Assembly: GCA_965655095.1 (NCBI GenBank)
Contig: OZ296649.1
Span: forward strand, 68,200,001 to 68,264,000
Source: Haplodiscus bocki
Lineage: Eukaryota
DNA length: 64,000 nucleotides
Reading direction: 5' to 3'
Made by a program: the position numbers and the translations under genes. The notes under the pieces are model-generated. The model was not told where the DNA came from and searched no databases. It saw nothing but the letters and a program-made list of their open reading frames with translations. Positions 1-51,844 of this stretch are shown here, in pieces (position 1 is the stretch's first letter; each line of letters starts with the position of its first letter).

Positions 1-1430
1 GAATATTTTCGAGTGGTTTTGTTCGCGTAACTTATTCTTATTAAACTGAGAGGTTGCGGCTGAATTTTATTCATTCTTAACTATGTCTTAAAGAATTCAC
101 TCTATGTTGTTTGGCACAACTACGAGACGTTCAGTTCACAACCATGCATTAGCCAGTACTGCAGACCTTGCACGTTCTACTTGTTTCCTGACATGGGGAT
201 GCTACGCTGGTACCTTACCGCCTTTAAGTTCACCGCCCGGTATAGAGTGAATGTTTTTCTACAACAAATCCTATCAACTCTGTGCAAACGAGTTGTTTCT
301 TAGTTCTAAATTTTATAATCTCGATTACTGGTGGTTGTGGTTCTGACTTTCTATCTTCTCAAATTTTAGCAAGCTCTGAACAAATTTCATCTTTCTTTAA
401 TGTTCTTTCGAATGCGTGTTTTCAGGTTCTCGTCACATATATAGTTCGTTAGTAGTAAATCTAGGATTACTTCACTACTATTAAATTGAAAAAGTCGTTT
501 TAACTACTTTATGGCTACTAAAAAGGGATTTGCTTAAAACTTGCTATATAAAAAGTGAAAGAACAAATTTGTTAAGTTGGTTGAATATTTTCTTTTGAGT
601 CTCGAATATCATTAAAGCAAATAATTTTTTGCAACGAACTAAGATTATATATTATATTCTTTTGAACTCACGACATGATGCTGATATAGAAGGTTGAGGA
701 TTGAGATTCTTGTGGTGTTATCGTGTGACGAAGTGAGGGCCCTTGCTTTCTTCTGTTGTCGTCGATGAATATGTCGTGTGGCGAAGTGAGGGCCCTTGCC
801 TTCTTCTGTTGTCGTCGATGTTATTGAATACAAAATTTGGATTTGAGAAAGACAGAGTTTGATTTCTTTTTTTATTTCAGATTGATACAAAGACGTCTAA
901 CGCCAACTTTTGTAGTTCTGAAAATTTTACACCAGCAGCTGTAGAATATCGGCGTTGATTTTCTGTCTCTCAAAATGGGTGGCTAAGAGCAGAGTTTTGC
1001 GAGGCTGTCTTATATACTCTGCCCGGCGTGATCAGTTTTCACGCCTGTTGATATTTTGACGATTTTTAGCTTTTTTTGTCGATCTGGTGCAATCGATGGC
1101 GTAAAAAGTTTCTGGAGTTCGTCCTTGGAATGTTCTGGAATCTTGGTTGTCAAAGCGTTTCCAGGACGTTGCTGTGATGTAGCAGCCATCTCCAAGAGAT
1201 TGTTAAAGCACCAGAAATCATCGCCATTTTAATAATAATTCTGCACTTTTTTTAGACTAAGGTGGCGTAATATTTTGTCATGAGACGTGGCGTGATCAGA
1301 AATATGATAAGTGCAATCTAATTTAGGAATAATAGAGGTGAGCACCACAATTTGAATACAAAAAGTAGTTCAAGAATGTTCGTGTTTAAAAATGTTCTTG
1401 TTTTTTTCTTTTGACAAATTCTGGTTGTCA
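1..1430 (-). repeat. 3' LTR of the Gypsy element (truncated by window start)
   Basis: Matches 11290-12718 at offset ~11289; starts TGACAACC on the minus strand, just after the PPT. Confidence 0.95.
721..826. repeat. 53-bp tandem duplication inside the LTR (also at 12010-12115)
   Basis: tcgtgtgacgaagtgagggcccttgctttcttctgttgtcgtcgatg... repeated twice with few mismatches. Confidence 0.9.
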
Positions 1431-1704
1431 TAATGCTTTCCTTCTCGAAGTTTGTGTCCCACAAACTAAACTGAGACATCGTTGATGGGTTCAAGAAGAT
1501 GGACTGATTGACCATGCGAGGAGCGCTGATGGATAGTTGTGAAAGGGCCCGTAAAAAACTGCGATATGTGGAATGGTTTGTCCTTTTTAGGATCACTGGG
1601 CCACGGGGAGGCGTGATTTTGAGTATGGGGTATTGACTGTCATCAAGGAGTTGAACCATATCATCTACGCCAACGTTGTGAGTTCGACCATCACAAGTTG
1701 TCAT
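1318..1704 (-). CDS. Possible accessory ORF (128 aa) between env and the 3' LTR, running across the PPT into the LTR; unknown product
   Basis: Open ATG-initiated frame in sense orientation; frame open to ~1776 with an AG acceptor-like site near 1802; no recognisable motif. Confidence 0.3.
   Translation of the reverse strand: MTTCDGRTHNVGVDDMVQLLDDSQYPILKITPPRGPVILKRTNHSTYRSFLRALSQLSISAPRMVNQSIFLNPSTMSQFSLWDTNFEKESIMTTRICQKKKTRTFLNTNILELLFVFKLWCSPLLFLN
1436..1446 (-). promoter_or_regulatory. Polypurine tract GAGAAGGAAAG
   Basis: All-purine run on the minus strand 5 nt upstream of the 3' LTR start. Confidence 0.75.
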
Positions 1705-2694
1705 TGATGCAGACGGTAGGCTAAAATATTCACGGGGAGATGCGGAAACCGTCTCGCAATTAGGAAGCTGCTGAGCTTACAAAAGGGGTTCGCTGATGAA
1801 CTGAATTAAAAGATTCAAGTAATAATGTGAACAGTTAGGTTAGTAAAAATCTTTTGAAGGGGTAGAAGAGCCGGTTACTATAATTTGAAGTTTATTAAGT
1901 ATCATTGTCTCAATTGTTTTTTCATGGTTGGGGTGTCTACGTTGAAAAGTAAAAAATTATAATGTTGAGGCGGAGGTTGGGCAAGCAAGGGCATGCGGGG
2001 GTCGCAACAAAGTAAATCTAGGTCTTTCATGAACAAAAAATGGTCGTGGTGAAGCACATCAGGGGGAATTGGAATGAGTGGGGTAATATGGTGTTCGGAA
2101 ACAGGGGTTACAAATAGGGGGTGAATCAGGGCCGTTTAGACATTGGTGGTCAAAACAATGAATAACGGCTGGGGAAGAAGACAAGTGGAACACAAAGTTA
2201 TAGAGGATTTCGGGCAAAAGCGACAGGTTGACGGCAAAATGGACAGCATGTGGCTCGGTGTGTAGAAGGTGACAAGTGTGTCAACGTCTTGGAGGCAAGT
2301 GAGACATTGTTGAAGGCTGAAATGGACTAAATGGCGGATTAGAGGGAGGGTACGCTAGTGCCGCACAGAGGTTCCGAAGAGGCGTTTACTTTTTTTGAGA
2401 ATTACCTTTTTTACGTGGTAACTTTTGTACATTTAAACACTATGATACATTACTTGCAAAGGATACTTAGGCTGATGTGGTTTGTGGGGTATCGACGTGA
2501 GAAACCGGAGCTGGAGTAAAGGTGGTCAGAACCAATTGAGATGTAGTACGGATGGTTCTGGTTCATGCGGTGACGTCCGGGTACAGTTTTTCTTCATCTT
2601 CGGCGGAGTAAGCAAACGGTGCATTAGCTTCAGTCTTTAGTAAGGCTTCTTTAGCAAGAGCACGAAGCGCGGTGAATTCTTGTCGAGTTAAAAT

Positions 2695-4845
2695 TTAAAA
2701 AGAAGAGTCTGAGTCTGGTTTAATGTCGTTCGTGACATGAACAACTTGGCCAGATTTATTCTTGAAGAAACGACGTGGGGCACAGCAAAGTGCACGTGCC
2801 TGTCTGTGAAAGAGTGGAAAGTTAAGTATAAACAAAAATAAAGAAAGTACGATTGATCCGCCTGCGATTAAGAATGAAGTTTTCGCCGGTACAAAATTGT
2901 CAAGTGCTGCTTCGGTGGCAGGATTGAGAGACGTATAGTGTGCAACAATTGGTTCAGTCAGTTGTTGTAAAGTCTCTGGGTCCATTCGTCTAACGTCTGG
3001 ATTTTCAGTCAGTTTAACTGTAAGCTCTCTAGAATTGATTTCCGGGCTGCACCGATGGAGTAACTTGGAAAATTGAGTTTGTCAAACGGGACGTACTGAA
3101 AGACTTGGTTCAAAGGGGGTGCCAGTTTGATTGTTGCAATGTATGGTTCCGGAGTCGTTTGACATGCATCCATATCGTTTGACAGAAAAAGATCGCCTTG
3201 ATTAATGTAAAGAGTACTTTCACAACTTGGTCGAAGGACGCATGCCTGACAATCGATTGTGGACAAACTGAGTCCATTTGATCAGCTATCGTTCTTAACG
3301 TCGATTGTAGGGTGGCGAGAGATGAGGTGGTAGACGCCATTTGCCAAGTAGATTCCCTGTGGGGCTTCTGGAAGAAGAACAGAGGTAACGGGGCAATTAC
3401 GGAGTGCTGGAATGTCTTGATTAAAATACAACGACGTGAGACAGAGAAGCGTTTAATCAGTAGTAGTCGAAAAGCCTTTGAGGCACAGTTTGATTCGATT
3501 ACTGCCCGTGCATTGTTGTAGCGTAGACGCAGCTAACTCTGCAAAATTGGTATTGTCTGTTGCAGTCGCGACGTAGGGTTTCGGAAATTGGTAAACTGAT
3601 GCCGTTTTGCCGTCATCGTTGGGTTTGTATAGAGGTTCGGCTTGGAAAATATTGTGGGTCGCAGATTTGGAGGTCATTGGAATGCCAAGAACAAAAGAAA
3701 TGCCTTTAGGCAACAGCGTGACTTCTAATACGATTTGCAATTCGTAATAGATAGCTTCGAATCCCGATGGTATAGCAGGCGTCAGTTTGCTACCTTTCCG
3801 AAATTCTTCAGCAGCGAGTTCTTGCACTATTTTGGCGAGCTGTGTTGGAAGCAGGAATTGTGGTGTGATGTGTCCCGTAGCGAGAGATGAGATTATTGAG
3901 AAGAAATTGTTTCTATATGCGTAAAATACTAAACGAAATGCTTTAAAGTGTGTGTACAATGTACCAATTTGTGACAAATACAATTATGAGGACTGAAGAA
4001 AGTGGCGGTAAGCACTTTCGAATTGATAACCTCGAAACGCATCTTCAAGAGTGTATATACGCTCGATCATATTTGAAATACGTAGGTAGGTGTCGTTTTT
4101 AATTCGTTCAACACTTTCCTGGGTCAGACGAATTTCGTCTCGAGGTAAAGCAAATTTTTCGTTGTTCTTCTCTTGGACCATCTGAAATGCCTGTTGTTGT
4201 GTTTTTTGTTGTTTGGTCACTTGAGCGAGTTCTCGTTCTATTTCTTCAATAGAATCACAAAGATTAAAAATGGAGAGTGCATTACTTGCTACATTTTTAA
4301 TTGGTTCTCCCAGGGTGAATGCTGTGCCAGCCGCTAGTGTTGCAACAACATCAATGAGCCGACGTGTTCTGTTGTGAGGTTCTTCCTCAACAGTTGAGCG
4401 TCTTTGTCGAGAGGTTCCCAGAGATGCTGTTGGTGGGAAGAAAGATTCTGCAATGGCACTCAGAGTGTTGAGTTCGGATTGTGCTTCGTGAATTTCAGTC
4501 TTAAGATGATTGTACAAGTTTTCCATTTGTTGTAGGACCGGTATGTGGGATTCATTGAACGTATTGTTATTACAACCTGACTGTGTGACTCGGTGTTGCA
4601 TGTGTGAGAGCTTCTCATTGCTTTCGAGAACGATAACACGCACGCTGTCAATATTAACGTCTGGGAGCGTCGGGAAAGGAGAGAATAGTCGGACTTGGCT
4701 CTCACTTTCGTAAGTCACAACTTGGTATTTAAAGATGAAAGCAGCTCCCCGTTTGAATTCCGGTAGCTGTTGTTTGTTCTCAATCGAATACTGTATGGTG
4801 TTCGCAATGCAAAGCGTTGTCCAGATGTATAGTAGCGTTGTGATC
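2695..4845 (-). pseudogene. env: env: class I (F-type) fusion glycoprotein, disrupted; cytoplasmic tail may extend to ~2467
   Basis: Signal-like ITTLLYIWTTLCIA, furin sites RQRR and RTRR, fusion peptide LIDVVATLAAGTAFTLG, heptad repeat, GHITPQFLLPTQL motif, Cys-rich region, TM FLIAGGSIVLSLFLFILNF; stops at 3984, 3453, ~3280 and a frameshift near 3010. Confidence 0.85.
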
Positions 4846-6836
4846 CTGAAAGGAGATCTTCGTTATTTCTGATAATGCGTTTTTCGTTCGCTCGTAGGAG
4901 TTTTATGAAATTTTGTTCCCGACTGTTTTTGTATTTTTCGCTCTGGAGAGTTATAACTTGTAACTATATCAGGAAGATATGTCGTAAAAAGTGGTTGTGC
5001 TTTTCTTTGGGAGGACGTATTAGGTCGTAATTGCATGGAAGACGTGTTTGCTGGAGGCGTTCTTCGAAGATTTCTAGCTGCGGCATCCACAATTGCTGTG
5101 ACGTTGTCGCCTGGTGATTATCTTTCGTGGAGAAAAACATTCTCAGGTATGAGAGGTTGTATGTTAATTTGAGGAGTAGTCGGTGATTGTATGGCAACGT
5201 CATTTCTTGTGTGTGGACTAGGTTGTTCTAATGTCGGTGATCGCGAGAACACAGGAGGCGATCTCGTTACTTCACGTTTCACCGGGTTGGGCGGAGTTTT
5301 TGGTGTAATTCTACTTGCTGTGACGGATGCGGCTGTTCGTCCTACGGCAGGTATTGGTGTGAAAATACTAGAAGGTGCAGGTAGGAAAGTTAAACAATCA
5401 TCGTGATTAAGTGTTCCATCTATGTGTTTGCGTGCGTCTGCTATGTCTTGAGTTGACTGAAAACTTCTTGGTTTATTTCTCGTAGGTACATTGGACGTTG
5501 GCGGGGGTTCGAAAAATGGTTGTAGTCTATCGTAATGCACAATTTGTTGTTTTGATGCATTTTCTTCTTTAACTCTTAATGCGAAATCGTTCAAACATTT
5601 TTCGATCACATACGGTTCTTTCCAAGGGCTTGCGAACTTAAAAGTTGTGCCAACAGGAATAGCTGGATGATAGAGTAAAACTTTTTGTCCTTCTTTATAT
5701 GTCGGGCCGTGGACCTTTTTATTATAGATAGCATTTCGGCGTTTTTGTTTTTCAATCAAGTTGTGTCGAACTAGCTCAAATGCCCGTTGAAATGCTTGCC
5801 GTTTATTGTGTACAAATTCATGAATATCAGTCGTTGTATTTTCTTGTGGGTTAGGATACATGCAATCTAAAGGTAAACTCAATTCTTGTCCGAAAACTAA
5901 GAATTGCGTTGTGTATCCTGTTGATTCATGTACAGAAGATCGATACGCCATCATAACGTACGGCATTTGTTGTGAACAGTTACTTTGTTCTTCGTTTATA
6001 CATTTTGCTAACATGTTTTGTAAAGTTTTATTCATTCTTTCCATCACTGCATTTGACTGAGGATGAAAAGGTGTTGTTCTAGTTTTATCTATTTCAAGAA
6101 GTTGCATTATTTGTTCAAAAAGTTTTGATTCGAAGTTTTGGCCTTGATCGCTGTGCAGGCTATGTGGGCAACCAAATCGACTGATCCAATGATCAACTAA
6201 GGCGTTGGCAGTTGTGACGGCCGTTTGATCTGGTAATGGTATTGCTTCATACCATTTTGTGAAATGGTCGCCAATTACTAAGATGTGTTTGTTTCCATTT
6301 GATAACGGCAAAGGTCCCATGAAATCAATTCCAATGTGATGAAAAGGATAACTGGCTTGCCATTCTACTTGTGCGTGATGATAATTCTTGGGCGGTCCCG
6401 AACGTTTTTGACATTCGGGGCACCGACTGACAAACAATTTTGTGTCTTCCTGCAGTCCTGGCCAGTAAAATCTTTGTTTTATTTTCTCTGAGGTTTTAGC
6501 AACTCCTAAATGTCCGGCTGTTGGTGATGAAAGACACGCTGATAGGATTTCTTGCGTCATTGATGGTGGTACTGTATGTTGTAATAGCACTTGGTTATCT
6601 GCGGTTTCGAATTTTCTGCACAAAATTCCATCGAGGAGTTGTAAACTTTTCAGTTGGTTGTTGAGTTGCCACGCGAGCCGAGGAAGTCCTTGCAGTTCTT
6701 CTGATATGAGCACTTTTCCTTTTTCGATCCATTGAATAAGTTTGGACAATGCTTCATCTTGACGTTGTGCTTGGCCTAGTGCAGAGTGCACTGGCGTTTC
6801 ATCTTGTTTCTGTGATTGTTCATCTTTATTTTGATC

Positions 6837-7225
6837 ATAGACTGTGATAGTTAAGTTTGACTGTGCGCAAATTTCTTTGATAAGGTGTTCTACTTTGTGC
6901 CATTGTAACCGATCATGTCCACAACCGGTTTTTGGCATACTGTGAGTGGTTTTGTGTTTGTTAGCATTATCATGGCTTCTAGTGATTTTCGCAAACTATC
7001 GTAGGTTGGTTTTTGTAAGAAACGTTTCTTCGTAACTAAGTGGTAGATGAAGCGATCATCTAGTTGTTGAACAAAAAGTGGAAAATTAGTGCTCTCTGGA
7101 AGGTTTTACGGAAACTTGCGTTTGAAACTTCGGGCAATTCCCGCAGACATTTTAAAATCTGATGATACGCAGTGGGCTAAGGAATCTTTTGAGTCGAAAA
7201 GATTGCCAGCTTTATGAATGAGTTC
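6837..7225 (-). pseudogene. TARG1/OARD1 (Poa1p-like) macrodomain embedded in pol between RNase H and integrase
   Basis: Manual translation: ELIHKAGNLFDSKDSLAHCVSSDFKMSAGIARSFKRKFP*...[30 protein letters not shown]/fs/[35 protein letters not shown]. It follows the TARG1 motifs GDLF, DSLAHC, MGAGIA, YYLITKK, KPTY..L.KSLEAM, SMPRIGCGLDRLQW and ITVY in order. Confidence 0.9.
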
Positions 7226-9480
7226 AGAAAATTTCGTTTTTTTTGGGTTTATTTAGTTTTTCTTTGCTTTGAGGAGTAGTCACGTGATCAACAATTGGTA
7301 TTCGTGAAAGTCCGTCGGCATGACCATGGCTTTTGCCGGGTCTGTCTTGCACCTCATAGTCAATTGCTGCTAACTTTTCGAGCCATCGTGCTGTTAATCT
7401 ATCTGGATCTTTAGAGTTATGTAACCACTGCAGTGCACGAAGATCAGTGACAATTTTGAATTTTCTTCCAAGAAGGTAATGTTTAAAGTGTCGATTGAAG
7501 GTTACAATTGCTAAAAGTTCTCGTTTCGTTGCAGAATAGTTTGTTTGAGATTTTGAAAATGCCTTTGATGCATAGCAAATAGCTCGCTCTTTTCCGTCTT
7601 GCCTTTGGGCTAATACTGCTACCATTGCTGTTAAACTTGCGTCAGTATACAAAATAAATGGTTCTTTTACGTCCCGGAAGGCTAGGATTGGTGTGGATGA
7701 CAAATGTTTCTTCAAACTCTCAAATGCTTCTTGCGTTTCTTTTGTCCAAGTAAACGAGCTCTTAGTTTCACTAGCTTTGTGCAATGGTTGTGCTATCATA
7801 GCAAAGTTTTTAACATACTGTCGATAATATGAACAAAGTCCTAAGAACGACTTGACATCTGTTTGGTTTTGTGGTACCGGAAAGTTTTGAACTGCTTCAA
7901 CTTTTTCGGGATCGGCCTTCAATCCGTTTTTGCTGATTACGTGTCCTAAGAACTGAAATTTTGTTTGGAAAAAGGCACATTTTGTCGGATTGATTTTTAA
8001 ATTCGCCTCGCGAAATCTTTGAAATACTTGTTGCAGTCTTTTATTGTGTTCTGCTGGTGTTTTTGAAAAGACGATGCAGTCATCTAAGTAAGGTACGGTA
8101 ATGTTCCACGTGAGTCCAACAAGCACGTGTTCCATTAAACTTTGAAATGTTTTCGGACTACCCGTCAATCCCATTGGCATGCGTAGCCCTTTAAATGATC
8201 CGAAAGGAGTACTAAACGCTGTATCGTTTTGGCTTTTAGGTTCCATTGGCAACTGATAAAATCCCCATGACATATCTATTGTTGTGAAGTAAGCACTTCC
8301 GTGAAGTGTATCAAAAATTTCTTCAATTCACGGTATCGGCCAACAAGACTTGATTGTTTGTTCATTTAGTTTTCTGTAGTCTATTACTAATCGTAGTTTT
8401 CCGTTCTTTTTCGGAACTAGCATTGCTGGTGCACTATAAGGACTATGACATGGTTTGATCAATTCTTTTGACCTGAAGGCATCTATTTCCTCTTTTAAAT
8501 CATCTTTGTAATGCACTAGCATTCTTCTATTCGGTAGTCTTATTGGTTGTGAGCCTGGCTTCACATCTCTTCTATGACTAGTTGCATCACATTTTCCGAG
8601 GTCCCATTGATTGATTGAAAAAATATCACTATAGTCATCTAATAAATTTCTAAAATCTGCCCTGCAGTTATTGTTTATTTCTTTACTAATTGCTTTCTTT
8701 ACTTTCTCCAAGTCGTACTTGGGATCCTCTTCATTATAATTTTTCATTTGTTTCTGATTTATTTCTTGTATCAGACGATCTGATACCAGTTGTGACGATC
8801 CCAATGTTGTATCTTTGTAAATTGTTAAAACTTCATCAATTGTATTTGCTACTGTGATAGGAACTATTCCTTTTTCAAAACTAAACAATGCATCATGTGC
8901 TATCTGATTTTCATTATCTATAAAACGCTCGTGCGGTTCAAACAAAGCGACTCTCGCTACTGGTGGCGCTTTCCAACCAGGAATTGTGCCAGGCACAATC
9001 ATAACATGTTGTGGTGGAATTGAGACTTTCTCTAATGCCGCTACTCTATAAACTTGCTCTTCGTCGAACGAAAACTTTTTTTTGTAAAGAGGGACCAATG
9101 TTTTTCTATGGATTTGCAATTTGCTTTCGGAAAATAGTGCATCACATTTATTTGTTTCAAGAAAATCAAGTCCCAGTAAACAATCGGATGCTGCTTCTAT
9201 TAAGACGTAAAATGTAAGCTCGTACGTTTTGGAAATTATTTTGATTGGTACGGATACTGTGCCTTTAATTTGAATGGGCATCTGATTTGCGCTGCTGAGT
9301 CTTGTTGTACTTGGTTGTATTTTGACTTGATGATTTTCGTTGATTTGGTTGAAAAGTTTTTCGTTGAGACATGACACGCTCGCTCCACTATCGCAAACGG
9401 CTTCTACCTGTTTGTTCAAAATTGAAATCTGTACTTACAAACTTCGATGATCCACAACGGAAATGGGAAACTGAGTGAGT

Positions 9481-9539
9481 GGGCCTTCATTAGTGTCGTC
9501 TACGTGTTGACCCTGGGACGTAGACTGGTCTAGCTTAAA
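9481..9539 (-). promoter_or_regulatory. Putative -1 ribosomal frameshift signal (degenerate slippery site plus stem/pseudoknot) at the gag-pol junction
   Basis: T TTA AGC TAG (one change from UUUAAAC), then perfect 8-bp stem GTCTACGT/ACGTAGAC whose loop GGGTC can pair with downstream GGCCC; pol is in the -1 frame relative to gag. Confidence 0.7.
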
Positions 9540-10818
9540 GTATTTTGTTGCTGAGAGGTATTTGCGTTGCGGTCTTGATTGAAATTTCGTGAATTTTGGT
9601 TAACATTCGAATTTTGTTGCCTATTGTTTTGATTTTGTTGCAGTGCTCTACATTCACGAGACATGTGTCGCAGTCTTCCGCAATTAAAACATGCTGGACA
9701 ATCCCCGGACTGGTGATTTCTTCTGTTACAATGCCTACATGGTTGTTGGTTTGTGTTATTTCTGTTTTGTTGCTGGTTTGATGTATTGCGATTGTTATTA
9801 TATCTGTTGTTTTGTTGATTGCCACTGTTATTGTATCTGTTGTTCTGATTGTTGTTGTATCTATTGTTGTCGTTGTTTCAATTTCTGTAGTTTTGGTTTT
9901 GGTTTGTCTTTGCACTTTGTCTGTTTGGTCCGGGACTATTAAAACGAACGAAACGACCGTCGGTACTACCTGTACGTGAATTCGCAGAGTTTTGATTTGT
10001 TTGTGGTAATGCTTTTTGAATTTTCTGTCGGATTGTTTGTATTAATGTTCCCATCATATCATCTTGTGAGGTGGATGCTGTTGCCATCAATGGTTGAGGT
10101 GGAGTGGCCAAAACCATGTTACTATGGCGTGAGATCCACTTCTGAGACTGGGATCCATTTCCATGAAAGCATGCAATTCGACCGCGAGGGCCAGAGCAGC
10201 ATCCGGACTGGTTGGTTTACTTTTTTGAAGTTCCCATCTGAGTTTTGCATCGTGAAATCCTTCGATAAAACTAGTGAGAACCATTTGTTCTTCGATGAGG
10301 GGTTGTCCCCTATAAACTCTCCTAGCAATTGTTCGAACATCACAAAGAAACGCGGCGATGGTCTGGTTTGGTTGCTGCCGAGCAGCTTTCAGCTTTGCTT
10401 TAAGAACTTCAACATTTGTTGTGTACGTGGTGCGAAAAGCTGCTACTAACTGGTCAAAATTCTGTTGTTGTGCTACTGTGAGTGTTGTGTAGAAATGCAG
10501 AGCATTTCCTTTGAGTCCTTATGCAAAATAGTTCGGTCGGTTATAAGTGGTGGCTGTTTGCCATCCTGAAAGTGTTGCTGATGTTGTGAATTGTTGCAAA
10601 TAATCTTCGAAATCTCCTTCGCCGGTGAAAGCTTCTGGCATTAAACACGACGGGAGGGCCGAAAAAACTGCGCCGGCGGCGGCCGTTGACGTGCATGGTG
10701 CGGCCGGTGAGAGAGGAGTGAGAAAAACTGAAACGCCGCTACCTGATCCTGATCCGGGTCCAGCGCCACCACCGCTTCGTGGTGATCCGCTTCGTGATCC
10801 GGGGGCTGACGAAGACAT
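9530..10818 (-). pseudogene. gag: gag (capsid, N/Q-rich linker, two CCHC zinc knuckles), disrupted
   Basis: ATG at 10818; PEAFTGEGDFEDYLQQF...W and *GLKGNALHFY capsid-like motifs; CRHCNRRNHQSGDC-PA-CFNCGRLRHMSREC at 9650-9739; terminal TAG at 9530-9532; internal stop at 10519 plus frameshifts. Confidence 0.88.
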
Positions 10819-11036
10819 TTTGAGCACGAAAACGTTCTTAAGTCTTATTGAGTTTTAACCGAACAAGCACACTGTTTAAAGTTTTAAAGAAAAAAACAAA
10901 AACTGCTTAAAGAACAAATACACTTTTAGACAAACACGCACTATCTGAGAATTTTGTTCAACCAACTTCTTTTTTTTATTAACCAGCTCCTCTCAAGAGC
11001 GAAACAAAGTAGTTTTAATTTTAAGTTGTTTTAAGA

Positions 11037-11130
11037 GCAGCCGTTCGAGAAAGCAACCGTTCGAGAAAGCAACCGTTCGAGAAAGCAACCGTTCGAGAAA
11101 GCAACCGTTCGAGAAAGCAACCGTTCGAGA
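11037..11130. repeat. 16-bp minisatellite (GCAACCGTTCGAGAAA) x ~6 in the element 5' leader
   Basis: Direct reading: five full units plus a partial one. Confidence 0.95.
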
Positions 11131-11238
11131 TCTGAACGTTTTACCACTTACCTTGTGCTGGCAACAGAAGGTTTGAGGATTAAACAGTTTTACGTTGTAC
11201 CAAAAACACACAAAAAAACAAAAGAAGGAGAAAGTCAG

Positions 11239-11256
11239 ATCCCACCCTTGTCACCA
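11239..11256 (-). promoter_or_regulatory. Primer-binding site TGGTGACAAGGGTGGGAT (tRNA-Leu-like; Ser not excluded)
   Basis: 18 nt starting TGG just inside the 5' LTR, complementary to a tRNA 3' end ...ATCCCACCCTTGTCA-CCA. Confidence 0.85.
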
Positions 11257-11262
11257 TTTTTC

Positions 11263-12718
11263 TGACGTGTGTTTTGCATCTTGAGTGATCAATATTTTCG
11301 AGTGGTTTTGTTCGCGTAACTTATTTTTATTAAACTGAGAGGTTGCGGCTTGATTTTATTCTTTCTTAACTATGTCTTAAAGAATTCACTCTATGTTGTT
11401 TGGCACAACTACGAGACGTTCAGTTCACAACCATGCATTAGCCAGTATTGCAGACCTTGCACGTTCTACTTGTTTCCTGACATGGGGATGCTACGCTGGT
11501 ACCTTACCACCTTTAAGTTCACCGCCCGGTATAGAGTGAATGTTTTTCTACAACAAATCCTATCAACTCTGTGCAAACGAGTTGTTTCTTAGTTCTAAAT
11601 TTTGTAATCTCGATTACTGGTGGTGGTGGTTCTGACTTTCTATCTTCTCAAATTTTAGCAAGCTCTGAACAAATTTCATCTTTCTTTAATGTTCTTTCGA
11701 ATGCGTGTTTTCAGATTCTCGTCACATATATAGTTCGTTAGTAGTAAATCTAGGATTACTTCACTACTATTAAATTGAAAAAGTCGTTTTAACTACTTTA
11801 TGGCTACTAAAAAGGGATTTGCTTAAAACTTGCTATATAAAAAGTGAAAGAACAAATTTGTTAAGTTGGTTGAATATTTTCTTTTGAGTCTCGAATATCA
11901 TTAAAGCAAATAATTTTTTGCAACGAACTAAGATTATATATTATATTCTTTTGAACTCACGACATGATGCTGATATAGAAGGTTGAGGATTGAGATTCTT
12001 GTGGTGTTATCGTGTGACGAAGTGAGGGCCCTTGCTTTCTTCTGTTGTCGTCGATGAATATGTCGTGTGGCGAAGTGAGGGCCCTTGCCTTCTTCTGTTG
12101 TCGTCGATGTTATTGAATACAAAATTTGGATTTGAGAAAGACAGAGTTTGATTTCTTTTTTTATTTCAGATTGATACAAAGACGTCTAACGCCAACTTTT
12201 GTAGTTCTGAAAATTTTACACCAGCAGCTGTAGAATATCGGCGTTGATTTTCTGTCTCTCAAAATGGGTGGCTAAGAGCAGAGTTTTGCGAGGCTGTCTT
12301 ATATACTCTGCCCGGCGTGATCAGTTTTCACGCCTGTTGATATTTTGACGATTTTTAGCTTTTTTTGTCGATCTGGTGCAATCGATGGCGTAAAAAGTTT
12401 CTGGAGTTCGTCCTTGGAATGTTCTGGAATCTTGGTTGTCAAAGCGTTTCCAGGACGTTGCTGTGATGTAGCAGCCATCTCCAAGAGATTGTTAAAGCAC
12501 CAGAAATCATCGTCATTTTAATAATAATTCTGCACTTTTTTTAGACTAAGGTGGCGTGATATTTTGTCATGAGACGTGGCGTGATCAGAAATATGATAAG
12601 TGCAATCTAATTTAAGAATAATAGAGGTGAGCACCACAATTAGAATACAAAAAGTAGTTCAAGAATGTTCGTGTTTAAAAATTTTCTTGTTTTTTCTTTT
12701 GACAATTTCTGGTTGTCT
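11263..12718 (-). repeat. 5' LTR of the Gypsy element (~1456 bp)
   Basis: Ends ...ACGTCA on the minus strand 6 nt before the PBS; begins AGACAACC (T>A versus the 3' LTR); TGAC...GTCA terminal inverted repeat; roughly 17 differences from the 3' LTR by eye. Confidence 0.93.
12299..12305 (-). promoter_or_regulatory. Candidate LTR TATA box (TATATAA); same motif at 1010-1016 in the 3' LTR
   Basis: TATATAA ~415 nt into the LTR on the sense strand, with AATAAA about 140 nt further on (871-876 in the 3' LTR). Confidence 0.5.
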
Positions 12719-21925: not shown

Positions 21926-22075
21926 AATCAATTAAATAATATTCCACAGTATGATTTGTGCACTAAATTCTATGGAAAAGACTGAAAACCAAACAAAAGA
22001 CATGCTTCTCAAGGCGGTTCCAACGGACGGAATAAATAAATTTTTCGTCTCGGAGTGCGCTGAAAGTTACCATAG

Positions 22076-22440
22076 CGGAAAGGCAGAAAAATATAAGATT
22101 TTTGTCTCAAATTTATGTCACCAGCTCTATTAGGATACAAGTTTGACTGATTTTAAGGTCAGGGTAGTGTTAGAAGTGATTTTCAGTGTTTTGATAGCGG
22201 AAGAGCGAAAAATGTTAAGGTTTTTGTCACAACTTTATGTCACCAACTCTATTAGGAGACAGGTTTGAGTGATTTCAAGGTCAAGGTAGTGTTAGAAATG
22301 ATTTTCAGTGTTTTGTTACCGAAGGAGCGGAAAAATATAAAATTTTTCTCACAACTTCATGTCGCCAGCTCTATTAGGGGACAAGTTTGACTAATTTCAA
22401 GGTCAGGGTAGCGTCAGAAGTGAACTTCAGTTTTTCGTTA
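22076..22440. repeat. ~122-bp tandem repeat, 3 copies
   Basis: ...tatgtcaccagctctattagg...tttcaaggtcagggtagtgttagaagtgattttcagtg... recurs three times. Confidence 0.9.
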
Positions 22441-35910: not shown

Positions 35911-37137
35911 TGTTGCGGTTGAAGACTTAAATGATTGAGAAATTGGAAAATTTTCTTTTCTGATTGAGAAAGATGATAGATGTTTTTCAGCCTCAAAAAA
36001 ACCTTACCAGTTGCTCAAGACATGATATCATTAACAAGGTGCATTACACCGTCTTTATTTACTCTAAAACAATACAAAACAGTGAATTCTACACCTGATC
36101 CCACCATGACATTTAAAGTGTCGTATTTCAAGGTCACGTAATGCTGTTGACCTCAGTTTTCGGTCTGCCCGTTCTATGTGCACCATTGTACCTATGTGCC
36201 AACATTCCGCCTGAACGGAGAATAAAAATTTCAAATTCTTGCCTTTTGGGACCTATTTGATGGTTATATCTGATTTCATAAATTTTTGAATTTTTGGCCA
36301 ATTTTCGATATATTATTTTTAAGTTCATTTTTGAGAGCTTCACTTAGTTCATTGGTGTTGCAACTTTCTAGAATGAATGCCATATTGTCCTGTGTGACCC
36401 GTGTTTAATGTTTGATTTACATATAAGTAAAAATTTCTGATGTTATGGGGAAAACTCTGTTGTTTTACATATCTTTTTTGTCATTTCCTGTACTTTGTGT
36501 CCCTGTTGAATGTCGAATGTGATCTCATCTACTTTCATGACTGAAATCTTCCCCACTTTAGTGCTTTAATGGTATTATTTCGCATCCGATATTTTTTACT
36601 TCCTTCAATGATCACATATTTAGAATAAATGTTACGTTTATTTTATTAATTTGTTTAAATCTTTTGCCTGGCTCTGAAAACCTTGTAAAGTTTCAGCTCG
36701 TTTGGTCCCCATTGTAACCACCTGCCCCAACATGTTTCAAACATGTTTCAAAAGTTCCGGTGTTTGATTTTTACGGAAAGTTATTCACGAAGTATGCTGT
36801 GTTTGATGTCATTATTTGTTGTGTAAACTTTGGATATTCTAGCTGAGTTCAGGGTAATATTTAACTCACCGAAGAAGAGTTGCTCTGAAACTCGATACTT
36901 TAACCAGCAATTCTTTACGCTAGAGCTTGCTTGCAAAGTTTCAGTAAATTAGAGATTTGAAACCAGGATTGCTGAAAACTTAAAGACAGCATTAAAGTTG
37001 TGGAAAACTTCGAAATTAGAAATTGCCAAAGTGGGAGTTGTTTCAACCAAGCAAAAAATACTGTCCCTTCAAACCTATTGGGCGGACCAAGGCCGATGTA
37101 ACAAATAGGAATAGTGTGTTTTCGAACAACCGTTACA
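35911..37137 (+). repeat. 5' LTR of BEL/Pao element
   Basis: TG...CA termini; aligns with 43264-44465 with substantial divergence (very roughly 20% by eye). Confidence 0.88.
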
Positions 37138-37157: not shown

Positions 37158-37483
37158 ATCATTTCGATCCATCAGTGATTTCTTCAAGGGTTTGGAAACT
37201 TCGGTTGATACTTCAATGATGAAAAAGTAGCTGACACCGAAAAAATGTATTTTTTTTGAAAAAACAACTTGAGCTGGAAGTTCAGGAAATGAAAAAAAGG
37301 CTTGTGTAGTCAAGCATTGAACAGAGGTTTTGCGAGAGTTTTCACACGTCTCCCTGAACTCGAAAAATTCGCAACAGAATTATCAAACAGTTTGTACCAA
37401 AAGGCCTTGATTGTCGTCACAAAACTTCTACGTCCGACTACTTCGCCAACTCAGAAGCATTTACATCCTATTTTGCGAACTTT

Positions 37484-40400
37484 GTGGGACATTTACAGGC
37501 AATGCATTTGAAAGAAGAAGTGATTTCACGAAGTCCTTCCTGGCAATCATCACTGGAAGCTGCTAGAAATGAAATTCTGGAAAAGAAGGAAAAGCAAGCT
37601 ATCGAACGACGAAAAAAACAACGAAGAAAAGAACTAATGAAAGTGCAATCAATGAAAGTCCCTTTAACAGTTCCATCAAAAACAGTAACTTTCACTCCGA
37701 CAGTGAGTACTTCAAAGGTGGAGACAATGTCAGTCGCGTCATTTGTGTCATTCCATGGTGACGATTGTCACAATATCTCCGACAACAAGCACTGAACTAG
37801 CAGTGTCTGCCAGTGGTGGGAATGCAAAGAAGAATAACCTGAGTTCAAGTGAAACTCAAAAAACCAAAAGTGGAGCGCTCGAATTTGACAGACTATCACT
37901 TGGATCAAACTGTTCCAATGGTAGTCAAAAAAGACAACAGTCATCAAGCAGTCATCTGAAACATCAAAAACTGAAGCTCGAGCTGGAGTCTAAACGAATC
38001 AAATTACAAGCAGAGCAATATCAAAAACAGAAAGGGGAAGATTTGCGACAACTGCAAGAGAAAATGCAACTTCTGGAATTGGAACATTAACTACGCCAGT
38101 GCGGTGGCGAAAGTGAATATGAAACAGTTACTGGCTTTAAAGTCCTCGATGTTTGGAATTATTTGGAACTGGATAACAACAGTCTTGTTGGCTCTAAAGC
38201 TGTGATTGGCATCATGGCTCCACTGGTATCGCAGTCAGACGTCCGAACTAAGCTTTCAAATGATTAGCAGAATAATGTTTTGAACGATTTGCCTAACGAA
38301 AACGGATTTGATCTCAGTACGCTCAAAGTCAAAGCTGAAGAAACACCGAAGTTTTCGCTATTCCCTACTTTGAGTGCGGAATCTCCACTGAGGAGATTAC
38401 TGGGTGAGTTCACTCCAACATATTTTCAGACAAGTTCGATTCCAATGGAAAACATGGGAGCAGTGAATTCAGCTAACAAAAACCATCAAAGTGCGGGTCA
38501 AATGGCATTCAATGGTCGATATTTACCCAAAATTAAACTGAAGGAGTTTGCTGGCGACCCTTTGGAATGGCAGGAATGGAGTGGAAATCTCAGTCTACAG
38601 TTGGGAGAAATTCAAAAACCAATGATGAGAAAATGAGTCATTTTATAACTTCACCGACATGTGCGGCGAGGAGATCAGTTCAAGGTTTGGTTTATTCTGG
38701 GTCCATGTTCAGCGCTGCTTAGAATACTTTGGAAAGAAAGTTTGGACAACTTTATTTCATCATATCCGCACAGCTATCCAGAATATAGTAGTATCCATCA
38801 ATGAAATATCAGGATTCTAAAAGTTTAGTGGACTTTGCTGATATCCTTTCAGATTTTGTTGGTGTTCTTCAACAATTTGGTTACTCTAACAACTTATTTT
38901 CGACGAGCATTCTGGAAATGGTCTTTGGAAAGTTGCCTCTTGACATGAGACGCAAGTGGTTTGTAATTATTGAGAAACACCAAATCCGTGCAAAACCACC
39001 TAGCTTGATGGATTTGAATACTTGGCTACAAGAGCAGGCATTTGTACATGAGCGCTTTTTGAGTGGCTTGAAAACATCAGAGTATGATCTCGGCAGGCCC
39101 AATGAGGATTCCAAGAAAAGGGATCCAAAAGACCGCAAGTGTATTTCCGAAGTCGTTGTCAGTGACAAAAAGAGCACTAACCATTGCCCATTGCGAGACG
39201 GTGTCCAACGTATTTGGCAATGTGAAGCCTTCAAGAAAAGGTTCGCAGATGATCGCTAAAAGGTTGTGAAAAACGAAAGAAATTGTTTGTCATGTCTCAA
39301 TGGTAGCCATCAAAACAACCATTGCAAAACAGGAAAGTGTGGCATTGATGCACAATCGGTTGCTTCACAGAGCAGTCAAGTCAGTGGAGGCTGCCGTTAG
39401 CAAAGCAGAAACAAATATGACAACTATCAGTGGAACCAATGTGCGAGGAGCTTTGCCAGTGGTTCCAATCAGGGTCCATGGGCAAATTGGGTCTCATGAA
39501 GACACCATGGTTTTGTGTGATACCGGCTGGTCACAGACATGGGTTGATCAAGTGTTCTGAGAAAAGCTCAATTTGGATGGAGAGGAAAAGACAATTCATG
39601 TAGCTGGTAACCACGGTACCTCACCAATTCAGAGCCAGGAAGTTGAAGTTCTACTTGGGCCGGCAGATAGCAGTGCCGCTAACACATGTACTATATTGTT
39701 GAACAGTCTCAAGATTTTTGCCGTTGGAAAAGAAGATTTTGACTTGAGGCCACTGTAGCGAAAGTATGGTCATTTTTCATGCATTTGTCAAAACACCATA
39801 CGCCTGTCTGAAGTGGAGGTATTGCTAGGACAGGACGCATTCCCTTGATCTGCCCTGTTGCCTTCAAGAATCGTGGCACGAATACCCCTTGTGCAGTCAA
39901 GTTGTCACTGGCTTGGACGCTAAGCGGACCATTTCCCGCCTCAGAAAAGGCAAAATTCTATTCAGTCTGTAGTAAGAGCGAAGAATTGACAGCTGTTGTG
40001 AAACAATGGTGGATTTTGGAGTCCTACAGAACAGTGGTTTCGGTGGATGATTATAGCAGCGGTGAGAAACAAGCTTTATCTCATGTCAATAATACTATTT
40101 AATTTAAGGACGGAATATACATTGTGGGTCTCCTTTCGAATGGACAGCAAAAGGACCTTTAGAACAACTATTCGGCTGCCCTCAGCCAGCTGAAGTCACT
40201 CGAGGAAAGATTTGGCAAAAATGAATTTTTGAAAGATTGTTTTTCTGACACTATTGAAAGTGACCTGAAGAAGGGGCATGTCTCAAAATTGGAGACATCA
40301 GATAACATCAGTGAAACTCTGTGTTGGTATCTTCCTCATCATTCTGTTCTCAGCCCGACCAAACTTGAAAAGGTACGAAGAGTTTAAAATGCTACAAGCA

Positions 40401-43282
40401 AACTCAGAGGAACTTCTTTGAATGACGTATTGTTGATTGGACGAGACCTACTACAGAGTTTGTGGGGTATTATCCTCTTATTCCGAGAAAAGCCTGTAAC
40501 CCTGTTGGCAGACATTGAAAAAATGTTTCTCCTGGTGGAAGTGGAAGTAGACGACAGAAACTTATTTCGAGTTTTATGGAGAAAGCATGATGGACAATTA
40601 CAAATGATGGGTTTAACAATTACATTTTTCGAGCAAAGTCATCACCAACATGTGTTAATTTTGCACTTCAGCAGTGAGGAAAAGACTCAGAGACTTGGAG
40701 GCCCACAAAGTGGTTTTGTCAAGCTTTTATATGGATGAATTGTTGGTTTCAGTCGAAGATGTTGAGAGAGCCAAGGTTTAGTCGAGTGAATTGCAGACAG
40801 TGCTTATGACAGGGAGTTTCAACTTGACTAAATGGGGTTCAAACGACGCAGATGTATTCAAAGATTGAACACCAGCCAAGAAAAACCCTACAGTACTCGA
40901 GCTGCAATGGCCGCTAGAGCGCGACGAATTGAAACTTTGTTCTGGGGTCTCTTTCGAAAGTCAACATCAGTGGACAAAGAGAGAAGTGTTATCAAAAGTG
41001 TCAAATCGATTTGACCCATTGGGTTTTATGTTTCTATTCTCAATAAGAAGGAAACTGGTCATGAACAACATCTGGCAAACTCAATGGCAACTATGGGAAA
41101 AGCCAATTGGAGAGAGTTCGGAGAAAACTTTCAATACCTGAAATTTAGAGTTATCGCAAAACAATACAATGGCTGTACAATGATTGTTCAAAATGACTAA
41201 CAATGAAAAACGAGAGCTGCATGCTTCTGGAGATGCTTCATAGGACGCCGTTTGTGCAGTTGCATACGTGGTGAAAGGTATAGATTACAGGCATGTCAGT
41301 TTTGCCATGGACAAACCAAGATTTGCACCAATGAAGCATCATACCATACCTAAGCTGGAACTAATGGCAGCTGTTACTGCAACAAGATTGAAAGAGATGT
41401 TGATTAAAAAACTTGAGTGTAACTTCAGTGGAATCTTCATGTGGACAGATTCGACGACTCTGTTACAGTGGATTAGAATCAGTGACAAGAAGCAACCAGT
41501 CTTTGTGGCCGATAGAATAGCGGAAATTTTGTTTTCGACAACAGTGGATCGTTGAAATCACAACGATGGCGTAAAGGACCCAGCTAATCTGGGAGCACGT
41601 GGCATCAGCCATCCAGAATTTATGGAAAGTGATTGGGTGTAGGGTCCTCTTTGACTGAAAGACGAGGACTTGATATCACATTTTGATCAAAATTTGACTA
41701 GTGAAGACCAACAAGTGGATGATCACTTTAAAGAGGCCACCAATTTTGAAACGCAGGCGTTTTCTGGGGCTTTAGCTCAAAAGTCAATTGAGTGGGGACG
41801 ATGTTCACAGTTCAACCGCTTCAAGTTTATGGTAAAGCCATTTCTGTAAATGCTCTCAAAATGCAGATGTTTGAGTTTGGTCCAGCTAATATTGTTGGCA
41901 GAATTCAAAATCTGGTTGCTAGTGCAGCATGAGTGTTCTTCGAGTGAATGTATTGCTTTGAGGAAGACCATGATGGTACATAGCAAGAGCAAGTTAATTG
42001 GACTCTTGCCGTTTTTAGACAGTGATGATATCATGCATTCGAATGGAAGACTACGCAAAGCAGATGAGGAGTATCAGACAAAACACGTCATCATACTGCA
42101 CAGTCAACACAGGGCAGGGAAACATTTTCTCGATGAAATGCACAAAACATGCCATCATGATGGTGATGAATATCTGAGAAGCGAAGTCCAGCAAAAGTTT
42201 TGGATAATTGGTTTGAGGAATGCTCTTCGATCTGTGAAGCATGATTATGTTCATTGCAAGAATTTGGCACGAGCAATGAATATTCAAATGTCAAACCTAC
42301 CAGCAAGTAGATTGGATGGAACGAATCATCTTTTCCGTATATGTGGAGTGGATAACTTCGGGCCATTCCAAGTGAAACACTCCCAGAAGACAGTGAGAAA
42401 TGTGATTTTTCTGTTCACCTGTTTCAGCACCAGAGCAATCCACCTCAAAATTGTGTCGTCACTGGACACGCCAAGTTTTTTAGATGCCACTCATAGATTT
42501 TTGGCTAGACGAGGGTGTCCAAAAATCATTCTATCCGTCAAAGGTACCAATTTGGTTGAAGCAGCTCAAGGGTTTCGTGAACTACTTTCCGGTTTGCATG
42601 GAACTCAACTGGAAGAAGATACTGTCAAATTGGGTATCAATTGGACATTCAACCCATCGAGGGAACCACAGTTTGCCGGAGTTTAGGAAAATTTGGCGAG
42701 ATCACGCAAGAAAGCCATATTTAATATTCTTGGTTCTCAATCGCTGAAGGAAGAGCAACTGACAACGATAATTTGTTCAGTGGAAGAACTGCTTATTATC
42801 AGTCCTTGACAGCATCCAGCAGCGATACTGCAGATTTGGAGGCACTTCGTTCAAACGATTTCATCTCCGGACGATCTACGTTTGACTACCCAAGTGTAGT
42901 ATTCAATGGTGGGTCCACTGCCTTGAAAAAGGCTTTCTGGGCACTTAGTCAATTCATGAAGAAGTTATGGGACAGGTGGATGAAGGAAAATCTACCGCAG
43001 TTGACAACAAGAAAGAAATGGGCAACTGAAGAGAAACGACTGATGTCAGTTGGAGAATTTGTTTGGATTTGAGACGAGCAATGTCACCCCTTTAACTACC
43101 CTATGGGAAGAAATCTGGAGCTTCACACTGGTGACGATGAAGTATCCAGATCAGCAACAGTAAAGACTAGTCGAGAACAATTCAAAAGACCGCATGTCAA
43201 CTCGGTTCGTCCGGAGATTGACCGCAATGATGTGTTTTTGACGACCAAAGCCATGGCCGGCGATGTTGCAGTCGAAGACTGA
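37484..43282 (+). pseudogene. BEL/Pao gag-pol polyprotein, fragmented
   Basis: LPKIKLKEFAGDPLEWQEW (gag), Cys-His clusters at ~39180-39370, LCDTG (PR), ADIEKMF (RT), GDAS/TIPKLELMAAV/WTDST (RNase H), GVDNFGP (IN), WDRWMKENLPQL (C-terminal domain). Confidence 0.9.
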
Positions 43283-51123: not shown

Positions 51124-51644
51124 ATATAATGCGAGAAGTTTATCGCCGTAGAATGCGATTGAAATTGTGAGAATTCTCAAAAAGGTACAAAAAGATGGGT
51201 TGTTTCGAAAAAAGGTGGGTGATTTCTGAAAAAAAACCTGATTTTTTTAAATGAAAATCGGTGAAGCTCGCAATTTTAATGCAGATTGCGACTCAAAAGA
51301 TGTTTCTTGAAAATGTTTTTTTTCCACCTTATACATGAGGTTTTTTTGCGAGAGGTCGGAAATTTTTTATTTTTGGAAAAATTTCAAATTTGAAGATGAA
51401 AATCTATTTTTGAAAGAAAACGCTTTGATCCTTCTAAAAGGCATCTTCAACGAAGTTGGTGGGCGCAAAATATGCCGGTGGTAGCCGCATGTCATGTTAG
51501 TTGTTGCCTCGATGAAAAAAAAACAATGAGATTTATCATAAATTAAAAAATAAAAACTCCAAAACAGGCGCAAATTCCGTAACGCAAGGCTCGTGATGCA
51601 CAAGAATTGTGACAGAAGTAAAAACTTCACCAGTGGAACTTTTT

Positions 51645-51844
51645 NNNNNNNNNNNNNNNNNNNNNNNNNNNNNNNNNNNNNNNNNNNNNNNNNNNNNNNN
51701 NNNNNNNNNNNNNNNNNNNNNNNNNNNNNNNNNNNNNNNNNNNNNNNNNNNNNNNNNNNNNNNNNNNNNNNNNNNNNNNNNNNNNNNNNNNNNNNNNNNN
51801 NNNNNNNNNNNNNNNNNNNNNNNNNNNNNNNNNNNNNNNNNNNN
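51645..51844. other. Assembly gap (200 N)
   Basis: Run of N. Confidence 1.

Follow-up and report, generated by a model that had tools for sequence, protein, structure and literature searches.

Envelope-carrying Ty3/gypsy elements have been surveyed by Chary and Hayashi (2026, PMC13524379), who catalogued 1,512 of them, with env genes of the F and gB types, across most invertebrate phyla; Echinodermata and Porifera were found empty. An F-type env is thus a known feature of invertebrate gypsy elements, and the env gene discussed here enlarges an existing catalogue by one family; such elements are no rare lineage. The Drosophila errantiviruses gypsy, ZAM and Idefix (PMC12992720) have been shown to be infectious, whereas the present element is known from its sequence. 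Like these three, it carries env as a third ORF after the integrase, with an F-type layout that includes a cytoplasmic tail. In contrast to them, its Env is too distant for a direct Pfam match, the tail is 113 residues long and Pol harbors a macrodomain. The insect errantivirus clade (gypsy/ZAM/Idefix) is recognized by its position on an RT tree and by a pseudo-RNase H in the bridge of Pol, the place that the macrodomain occupies here.

The element lies on the minus strand of the stretch analysed (64 kb, hereafter the window), is about 12.7 kb long and is arranged LTR-PBS-gag-pol-env-PPT-LTR:

11263..12718, minus strand: 5' LTR, about 1,456 bp (ends +/- 5 bases), with TATA at 12305 and AATAAA at 12165
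11239..11256, minus strand: primer-binding site (PBS), starts TGG
9530..10818, minus strand: gag, broken, with Retrotrans_gag, an Asn/Gln-rich stretch and a zinc knuckle
4863..9460, minus strand: pol, broken by stops and frameshifts, with protease, RT, RNase H, macrodomain, integrase and a Pro-rich tail
2467..4862, minus strand: env-F gene, broken by 5 internal stops and 1 frameshift, about 795 codons if unbroken
1436..1446, minus strand: polypurine tract (PPT), between the env side and the 3' LTR
1..1430, minus strand: 3' LTR, cut by the window edge; identity to the 5' LTR 98.8%

Two LTRs, a PBS and a PPT are present, as in Ty3/gypsy elements (Metaviridae). The Pol order is PR-RT-RNase H-IN with an RT of the Ty3 type, according to both a Pfam search and comparison with solved structures, among which this RT is nearest Ty3 (E 7e-60), the next entry scoring 1e-32 and retroviral RTs 1e-28 or weaker. 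The LTR pair differs by 16 substitutions in 1,432 columns (K2P 0.011). The outer end of the 3' LTR and a target-site duplication, if there is one, would fall beyond the window. Neither of two 10-base PBS probes had a counterpart in the PBS table of PMC13524379, and no tRNA genes were found in the window. As gag, pol and env are all broken, this copy is non-functional; relatives with unbroken Env and unbroken Pol proteins exist. An errantivirus in the broad sense of PMC13524379 joins Ty3/gypsy Pol and an F- or gB-type env in one element, as is the case here with an env of the F type, but also has intact ORFs, which this copy does not, and it would fail the intactness filter of that survey. With the F-type 'ancient errantiviruses' described there, it shares the Ty3/gypsy gag-pol-env order, the LTRs, the PBS, many near-identical copies, and an F-type ectodomain between signal peptide and transmembrane (TM) segment, with furin site and fusion peptide. 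It differs from them in having two furin sites and a TARG1-type macrodomain in the bridge from RNase H to integrase.

The env frame opens after the pol stop (4863-4865) and ends with the stop at 2467-2469, directly downstream of a pol whose last domains are the integrase and the Pro-rich tail, so that the extent of the gene and its rank as third ORF after integrase were both correctly predicted. The F-type layout (signal peptide, furin site followed by an apolar fusion peptide, single TM helix, tail) was scored by hydropathy and motif scans rather than by a dedicated predictor:

4797..4844, minus strand: signal-peptide-like segment, hydropathy 1.72 over 13 residues
4398..4409, minus strand: first furin-type site, RQRR, from the motif scan
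4359..4370, minus strand: second furin-type site, RTRR, directly preceding the fusion peptide
4299..4358, minus strand: fusion peptide, Gly/Ala-rich and apolar, drifted in this copy
3990..4250, minus strand: long helical region, HR1-like, after the fusion peptide (helices 205-236, 241-274 and 278-291 in the model)
3837..3875, minus strand: GHITPQFLLPTQL motif, at the start of the region aligning to the solved 'fusion protein' 9w4c and to Pfam Baculo_F
3162..3512, minus strand: cysteine-rich beta domains, eight cysteines, pLDDT about 87-96
2809..2874, minus strand: transmembrane helix, 19-residue hydropathy 2.31
2572..2586, minus strand: LYPDV, within the 113-residue cytoplasmic tail

The original prediction had named most of these parts, and the signal-like segment, fusion peptide, GHITPQFLLPTQL motif, Cys-rich domain, TM helix and long tail with LYPDV were all found. 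A furin site is likewise present, but there are two furin-type sites where one had been expected. The heptad repeat was the weakest item claimed: long helices are predicted, but a simple test for hydrophobic a/d positions (best of 7 phases) gave only 0.48 vs 0.32, and residues 148-239 have pLDDT below 50. Hydropathy of the fusion peptide is 1.36, compared with 1.7 in 7 of 8 close relatives. The internal stops are located at 3984-3986, 3453-3455, 3282-3284, 2695-2697 and 2563-2565, and the frameshift near 3015-3018. Against P0003, an unbroken relative of 750 aa, tblastn aligned 4718-3015 at 90% and 3018-2470 at 91% identity, and the C-termini of the two proteins coincide (91% over 183 aa). Because of the five stops, the frameshift and the loss of 2 of the 12 family cysteines, this copy cannot make Env.

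Env homologues numbered 152 (E<=0.001) among 7,994 candidates scored, and 1,049 with the family profile, which excludes a chance origin of the frame. Intact copies had been sought as a check, and unbroken relatives of about 750 aa (749-771) were recovered at 86-90% identity; sister families stand at 40-51%, and clusters hold up to 188 members. Conservation of the ORF across the family, on which the earlier proposal depended, also extends to its features. Of the 39 relatives of 700 aa or more, 37 have an R-x-[RK]-R furin site, 35 a TM segment (hydropathy 1.6 or more) and 27 an x-YP-x-[VILF] sequence in the tail; both furin-type sites occur together in eight, all from the close subfamily. Each of the eight cysteines persists in 91-99% of the aligned relatives that have a residue at that position. 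Cleavage site, fusion peptide, cysteines, TM segment and tail motif are common to families only 20-50% identical. A quick Env tree of 38 rows (P0102 and P0110 left out, no taxon labels, long branches), used only for family depth and for the end branch of this copy, indicates a deep family and a long end branch. Within the tail, LYPDV is likely a YxxPhi (tyrosine) sorting signal, judging from its sequence, because only the Y-P pair and the hydrophobic residue are kept. An ALIX-type late domain was also considered and ranked below this reading, as the Leu and Asp vary among relatives.

Baculovirus F (Ld130 family, Pfam Baculo_F) and paramyxo/pneumovirus F share with this Env a matching fold, a cleavage-activated fusion peptide and cysteine-rich beta domains; in contrast to them, it is retrotransposon-encoded, and identity is only 8-14%. 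At the sequence level, the window's own env read-through matched no Pfam family at E<=0.1 and, in a single-sequence search, no viral fusogen in the PDB. Of 24 aligned members, 4 matched Baculo_F (PF12259), the best at E 3.4e-8, and 19 of the 20 distant relatives scanned gave no match to it. P0272, found with the family profile at E 1e-43, scores above the curated Baculo_F cut-off; it is also a row of the alignment, and the profile comparison with it is circular and was excluded as evidence. The profile of 83 Env sequences found as its best match the solved 'fusion protein' 9w4c (E 7e-6 over 208 positions), presumably a baculovirus F. Profile matches to haemagglutinin, RpoD and NUP62 were set aside as short coiled-coil matches.

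An early model built on 24 sequences reached a pLDDT of 47, and a VIA search with that model retrieved nothing but helical bundles. The read-through with X at stops, folded as a monomer on the 83 sequences, gave pLDDT 77.5 and pTM 0.71, with the fusion-peptide region unmodelled (pLDDT <50 for residues 148-239). The Foldseek comparison with viral F proteins proposed earlier retrieved paramyxo/pneumovirus F in the PDB (40 of 40 among the matches listed, best E 2.5e-6), at low TM-scores (TMq 0.18-0.31, rmsd 9-36 A). From BFVD it retrieved baculovirus F at E 4e-18 and glycoproteins of chu-like viruses at TMq 0.53-0.57, with an abalone herpesvirus protein in sixth rank. VIA-align, run without Foldseek, aligned NDV F (Z 8.6, rmsd 6.0, 290 residues) and RSV F (Z 8.3, rmsd 7.7, 389 residues). 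In the VIA ranking, eight generic helical bundles with Z of 8.8-11.3 stand ahead of the F proteins. It is extremely unlikely that the ORF encodes some generic membrane protein with coiled coils and no relation to class I fusogens, even though a direct Pfam match is lacking, the bundles head the VIA list and the heptad test is weak: the bundle matches are confined to residues 60-320 with 104-156 aligned, compared with 290-389 for F proteins, which span both helical and beta domains, and the sequence profiles link the family independently to Baculo_F and 9w4c. Despite low global TM-scores, the model supports a paramyxo/pneumo/baculovirus F fold for the ectodomain, and the class I assignment made at the outset is upheld by Baculo_F, the 9w4c profile, Foldseek and VIA-align together.

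The best TM-scores, which are those to chu-like virus glycoproteins, and the rank of the herpesvirus protein could also mean that env was acquired separately, and fairly recently, from an RNA virus (chu-like/toro-like) or a large DNA virus, instead of descending from an ancient errantivirus F stock. This is improbable, since the relatives span a deep and graded range of identity (90, 50, 42 and 20-26%) with the same layout of about 750 aa, and the sequence search of 7,995 candidates yielded no viral glycoprotein longer than 1,080 aa; the distant relatives carry no origin labels. The region is very probably the decayed F-type env of an envelope-carrying Ty3/gypsy retrotransposon, whose working relatives encode an Env that would act as a class I fusogen. 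Gene anatomy, homology, fold class, conservation in unbroken relatives and position in the element are the demonstrated parts of this reading.

As for its expression, pol and env share one frame, separated by a single TAA. There is no in-frame ATG ahead of the signal-like segment (the first is at 4601), and in each of the eight close relatives reaching at least 700 aa the gene call begins downstream of that segment. Two candidate splice sites are present:

11146..11154, minus strand: candidate splice donor in the leader (AAG|GTAAGT), downstream of the PBS and ahead of gag
4846..4856, minus strand: candidate splice acceptor from sequence pattern, a pyrimidine tract plus CAG directly before the signal-like segment

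The acceptor is the only acceptor-like pattern match between 4600 and 5300. The donor is the sole exact match in the window on both strands, but 0.83 are expected by chance and 59 of 100 shuffles contain one, so that only its place is suggestive. Env would most likely be translated from an RNA spliced from the leader upstream of gag to the acceptor immediately behind the pol stop; in Drosophila elements, env is as a rule expressed from spliced RNA (PMC12992720). The shared frame with its one stop would also suit readthrough from pol into env, yet this would bury the signal peptide and ignore an acceptor-like site exactly at the env start. Neither a longer form of Env nor a Pol-Env fusion was seen among 7,995 longer candidates scored, a weak argument that is blind to stop readthrough, and overall we regard readthrough as very unlikely.

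Following the spliced route, Env of working members would enter the secretory path by its signal peptide and then trimerise. Furin would cut at one site and free the fusion peptide, or, in the close subfamily, at two sites and release a 13-residue peptide. Two furin sites flanking a short peptide resemble the p27 arrangement of RSV F. The single TM helix would hold Env while the YxxPhi motif of the tail sorts it to the budding site of Gag capsids. Acting as a class I fusogen, Env would then fuse particle and target membranes, so that a copy produced in one cell could insert into the genome of a different one. Transfer would probably run from soma to germline by analogy with Drosophila gypsy and ZAM, and it is likewise by analogy with Drosophila elements that the lineage might be infectious, as the original prediction had it. 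Alternatively, the F-type Env may not be used to infect other cells but persist as a passenger, fuse cells, or block superinfection for the host: the transmission route outside Drosophila is unknown according to PMC13524379 (section 11), and many Env relatives in the database are fragments. That all entry features are kept across such divergent families, and that unbroken Env clusters reach the sizes given above, as expected of selection through replication, renders a non-infectious role unlikely.

A further frame follows env:

1902..2436, minus strand: candidate decayed accessory frame, Cys-rich

Three CxxC motifs fall in one stop-free piece (2139-2354), a number seen in 1 of 2,000 shuffles in a post hoc test. 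Frame length after env is not above chance (32% of 2,000 shuffles), and these frames have no family or atlas match.

Together with env, the macrodomain had been thought to make this a complex retrovirus-like element. It is real and belongs to the same element as env, but it is a domain inside Pol and not a separate accessory gene:

6835..7240, minus strand: macrodomain of the TARG1/OARD1 type, flanked by RNase H and integrase and disrupted in this copy by one stop and one frameshift

It matches human C6orf130/OARD1 (phmmer E 2e-17); in the relative P0298 the match covers the whole domain (E 1e-27), and in P0358 the macrodomain lies in one ORF with RT and IN. The catalytic pair named for TARG1/OARD1 (Lys84/Asp125, PMC8120803) is aligned, and both residues are kept in 73 of 84 relatives covering both sites (113 aligned), so that whole-domain homology and the Lys/Asp pair both indicate the TARG1/OARD1 type. 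OARD1 is a free enzyme, and in some fish (epsilon-like) ERVs macro ORFs have been reported (PMC4977317, citing Basta et al. 2009), as separate ORFs of a true retrovirus; in contrast to both, the macrodomain here is part of a Ty3/gypsy Pol polyprotein. The word 'macro' is absent from the main text of PMC13524379, and its 7 supplements contain it in species names alone, although the bridge is surveyed there (section 7). Among the open-access papers listed, judged by their listings and the openings of their abstracts, no report of a TARG1 domain in gypsy Pol was found. Macro-type domains have been noted in some Repbase elements, and macrodomains are a means by which several RNA viruses undo host ADP-ribosylation. 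A conserved TARG1 domain of catalytic type in one polyprotein with RT and integrase suggests, from its sequence, a retroelement countering an ADP-ribosylation defence.

The combination of F-type env and a macrodomain in Pol matters more than env alone. Xenacoelomorpha, Chaetognatha and Placozoa have no occurrences in the supplements of PMC13524379; if the host phylum is uncovered or empty in that survey, the family would extend the case for a pre-Cambrian env. Its many unbroken and many decayed copies allow a direct test of selection on env. Tentatively, and with some doubt, the lineage may consist of infectious, complex retroviruses of the gypsy type from an invertebrate group that the published survey did not include, with an active TARG1-type eraser in Pol, a doubly cleaved RSV-like F and, after env, a zinc-binding accessory gene. 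The eraser would enter the target cell together with RT and integrase and free viral nucleic acid or protein of host ADP-ribose. If true, ADP-ribosylation would be an anti-retroelement defence in invertebrates, with a direct way to test it.

The env gene (positions 2467-4862, minus strand) shares its reading frame with pol and opens directly behind the stop of that gene (4863-4865); sequence comparison places its terminal stop at the C-terminal end of an unbroken 750-aa relative. Read on the minus strand, it has the layout first described for it. This copy is a pseudogene with 5 internal stops and 1 frameshift near 3015-3018; two of the twelve family-conserved cysteines are missing, and close relatives have a more apolar fusion peptide. 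For the searches, X was put in place of the stops and env was used in two parts, P0001 (617 aa) and P0002 (204 aa). The element has two LTRs of ~1,456 bp, spaced by 11,289 bases, with differences in 16 of 1,432 columns; the 3' LTR extends beyond the window edge. Downstream of the 5' LTR comes a PBS, and upstream of the 3' LTR a polypurine tract. In the interval, gag with its zinc knuckle is followed by protease, RT, RNase H and integrase, the Ty3/gypsy order (Pfam), and Ty3 is the nearest solved structure to the RT. Both gag and pol of this copy are broken too.

Searched directly against Pfam and the PDB, the Env protein of this copy gave no fusogen match. Baculo_F is matched by 4 of 24 aligned family members (Pfam) and, above the curated cut-off, by 1 of 20 distant env relatives, while a profile of 83 sequences ranks the solved "fusion protein" 9w4c first (E 7e-6). 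A first structure model of Env failed; the second (pLDDT 77.5, pTM 0.71) does not resolve the cleavage/fusion-peptide region. In Foldseek against the PDB, all 40 of the rows listed are paramyxo- or pneumovirus F (best E 2.5e-6, TMq 0.18-0.31). The BFVD matches listed include baculovirus F at E 4e-18 and chu-like virus glycoproteins with TMq up to 0.57, besides an abalone herpesvirus protein and torovirus S. VIA-align, run on 48,161 chains, puts eight short helical-bundle matches above the F proteins. The first rows to cover most of the ectodomain come next: NDV F with Z 8.6 and rmsd 6.0 over 290 residues, then RSV F with Z 8.3 and rmsd 7.7 over 389 residues. The low global scores would fit a monomer model with its helical part in neither native state. 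The likeness to viral F structures expected in the original prediction is borne out, and profile and model evidence combined make the F-type class I assignment of Env secure. Uncharacterised abalone and ranid herpesvirus proteins also resemble the F-type model (BFVD rows 6, 26 and 31; E 7e-16 to 2e-7).

Searching with P0001 matched 152 proteins among 7,994 candidates scored, with identities of 92 to 40% among the 120 of 152 listed. The matches listed include unbroken Env proteins of 749-771 aa at 86-90% identity, whose clusters hold as many as 188 sequences. A profile from 24 relatives reaches 1,049 proteins at E<=0.001; among the best 150 of these, full-length env forms go down to 19-26% identity. 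In the 39 listed relatives of at least 700 aa, a furin-type site occurs in 37, a TM-strength segment in 35 and an x-YP-x-[VILF] tail motif in 27; eight, forming a close subfamily, have a double furin site. Because these furin, TM and tail motifs are kept across relatives, the frame is conserved in the family, contrary to the lack of conservation named beforehand as telling against an envelope gene. A published catalogue spanning most invertebrate phyla lists 1,512 Ty3/gypsy elements that carry an env of the F or gB type, and the F-type features in its accessible part are the same in this Env (PMC13524379). An F-type env in an errantivirus-like element therefore stands as a class but not as a novelty: the observation is real and correctly classed, this copy is non-functional, and the kind is already known.

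The decay of gag, pol and env is far beyond what 98.8% LTR identity allows (positions 1-12718). From the 1.1% LTR divergence ~0.56 new env stops are predicted since insertion, against 5 observed (Poisson P 0.0003; 0.03 allowing threefold bias), and in a quick tree the end branch of this env is 0.089, compared with 0.006-0.04 in unbroken sisters. Given this excess of stops and the long branch, inactivation of the copy probably came before the event that last made its LTRs alike. A functional helper element could have mobilised it in trans; alternatively, the LTRs could have been homogenised through conversion or tandem duplication.

No in-frame ATG occurs upstream of the signal-like segment in this copy, and for all 8 close relatives of at least 700 aa the called start lies downstream of that segment. 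An acceptor-like site is located at the env start. The one exact donor consensus in the window lies in the 420-base leader before gag; since chance alone would give about one such match in a window of this size, it is informative by its location only. In Drosophila, the spliced env-F RNA draws on exons that lie before gag or inside it, according to the accessible part of PMC12992720. The missing ATG, the candidate sites and the Drosophila splicing together favour a spliced env RNA as the source of Env. Class I fusogens follow an established pathway of secretion, trimerisation, furin cleavage, fusion-peptide insertion and hairpin refolding. Env from the spliced RNA would accordingly be secreted and then trimerise; furin would cleave the trimer, and the fusion peptide would insert before hairpin refolding. 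By likeness to gypsy and ZAM, particle formation and germ-cell infection may be envisaged.

Just downstream of the candidate donor, the leader carries a 16-base tandem repeat (six copies, 11036-11130). An ATG at the LTR/PBS boundary starts a 25-codon hydrophobic frame (11180-11257, minus strand) ending shortly before this donor. Each LTR contains a direct repeat of 47 bases with a spacing of 53 bases (721-820 and 12010-12109), and U5 appears unusually long, ~900 bases past AATAAA. Two further frames were noted:

1902-2436, minus strand: frame starting with ATG between env and the 3' LTR; it holds three CxxC motifs, is interrupted by 2 stops and may be what is left of a zinc-binding accessory gene
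1435-1776, minus strand: 114 codons uninterrupted by stops, immediately upstream of the polypurine tract; weak PH-like atlas leads only (<0.9)

Family and atlas searches found no match to the candidate accessory frame.

Elsewhere in the window, decayed frames at 37358-43000 (plus strand) resemble a BEL/Pao element in their motifs, as judged by eye; three pieces of this region matched no Pfam family. The region is flanked by a 1.2 kb repeat, 80% identical (35911-37137 and 43264-44465). A satellite with a 31-base unit (160 copies, 59037-64000) runs up to the window's end, tandem arrays have units of 352 bases (57896-58770) and 122 bases (22072-22435), and a stretch of N at ~51600-51850 marks an assembly gap (the window contains 200 N).

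Between RNase H and integrase, Pol carries a domain for which the PDB offers strong matches to human TARG1/OARD1 alone (E 2e-17 with the broken copy; E 1e-27 across the domain with a relative). A macrodomain search of longer proteins gave 113 matches among 159 candidates. Most of the matches also bear RT, RNase H or integrase domains, and their clusters include two with 923 and 219 members; one protein, P0358, holds PR-RT-RNase H-Macro-IN within a single 1,563-aa frame. The catalytic pair of TARG1, Lys84/Asp125 (in the accessible part of PMC8120803), is kept in 73 of the 84 matches spanning both sites. Co-occurrence was compared for 85 of 113 macrodomain and 82 of 120 env entries, nearly all single-member clusters; 15 env/macrodomain pairs have longest contigs of identical size, a proxy for env and macrodomain being together in other copies. 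Similar macrodomain segments turn up elsewhere: P0384 is another Pol in which the segment precedes the protease, P0381 is a named thrips protein that also has gag and Ig domains, and P0385 bears a viral methyltransferase. These settings hint at repeated capture. For the RNase H-integrase bridge, the accessible part of PMC13524379 names mini and pseudo RNase H and leaves a macrodomain unmentioned. Fish epsilon-like ERVs are reported to carry macro ORFs (PMC4977317, accessible part), whereas here the domain sits within a gypsy Pol, for which the literature within reach of our search held no report. What makes this family a variant worth attention is the TARG1-type domain embedded in Pol, with the catalytic pair kept, along with the double furin site and the possible accessory frame.
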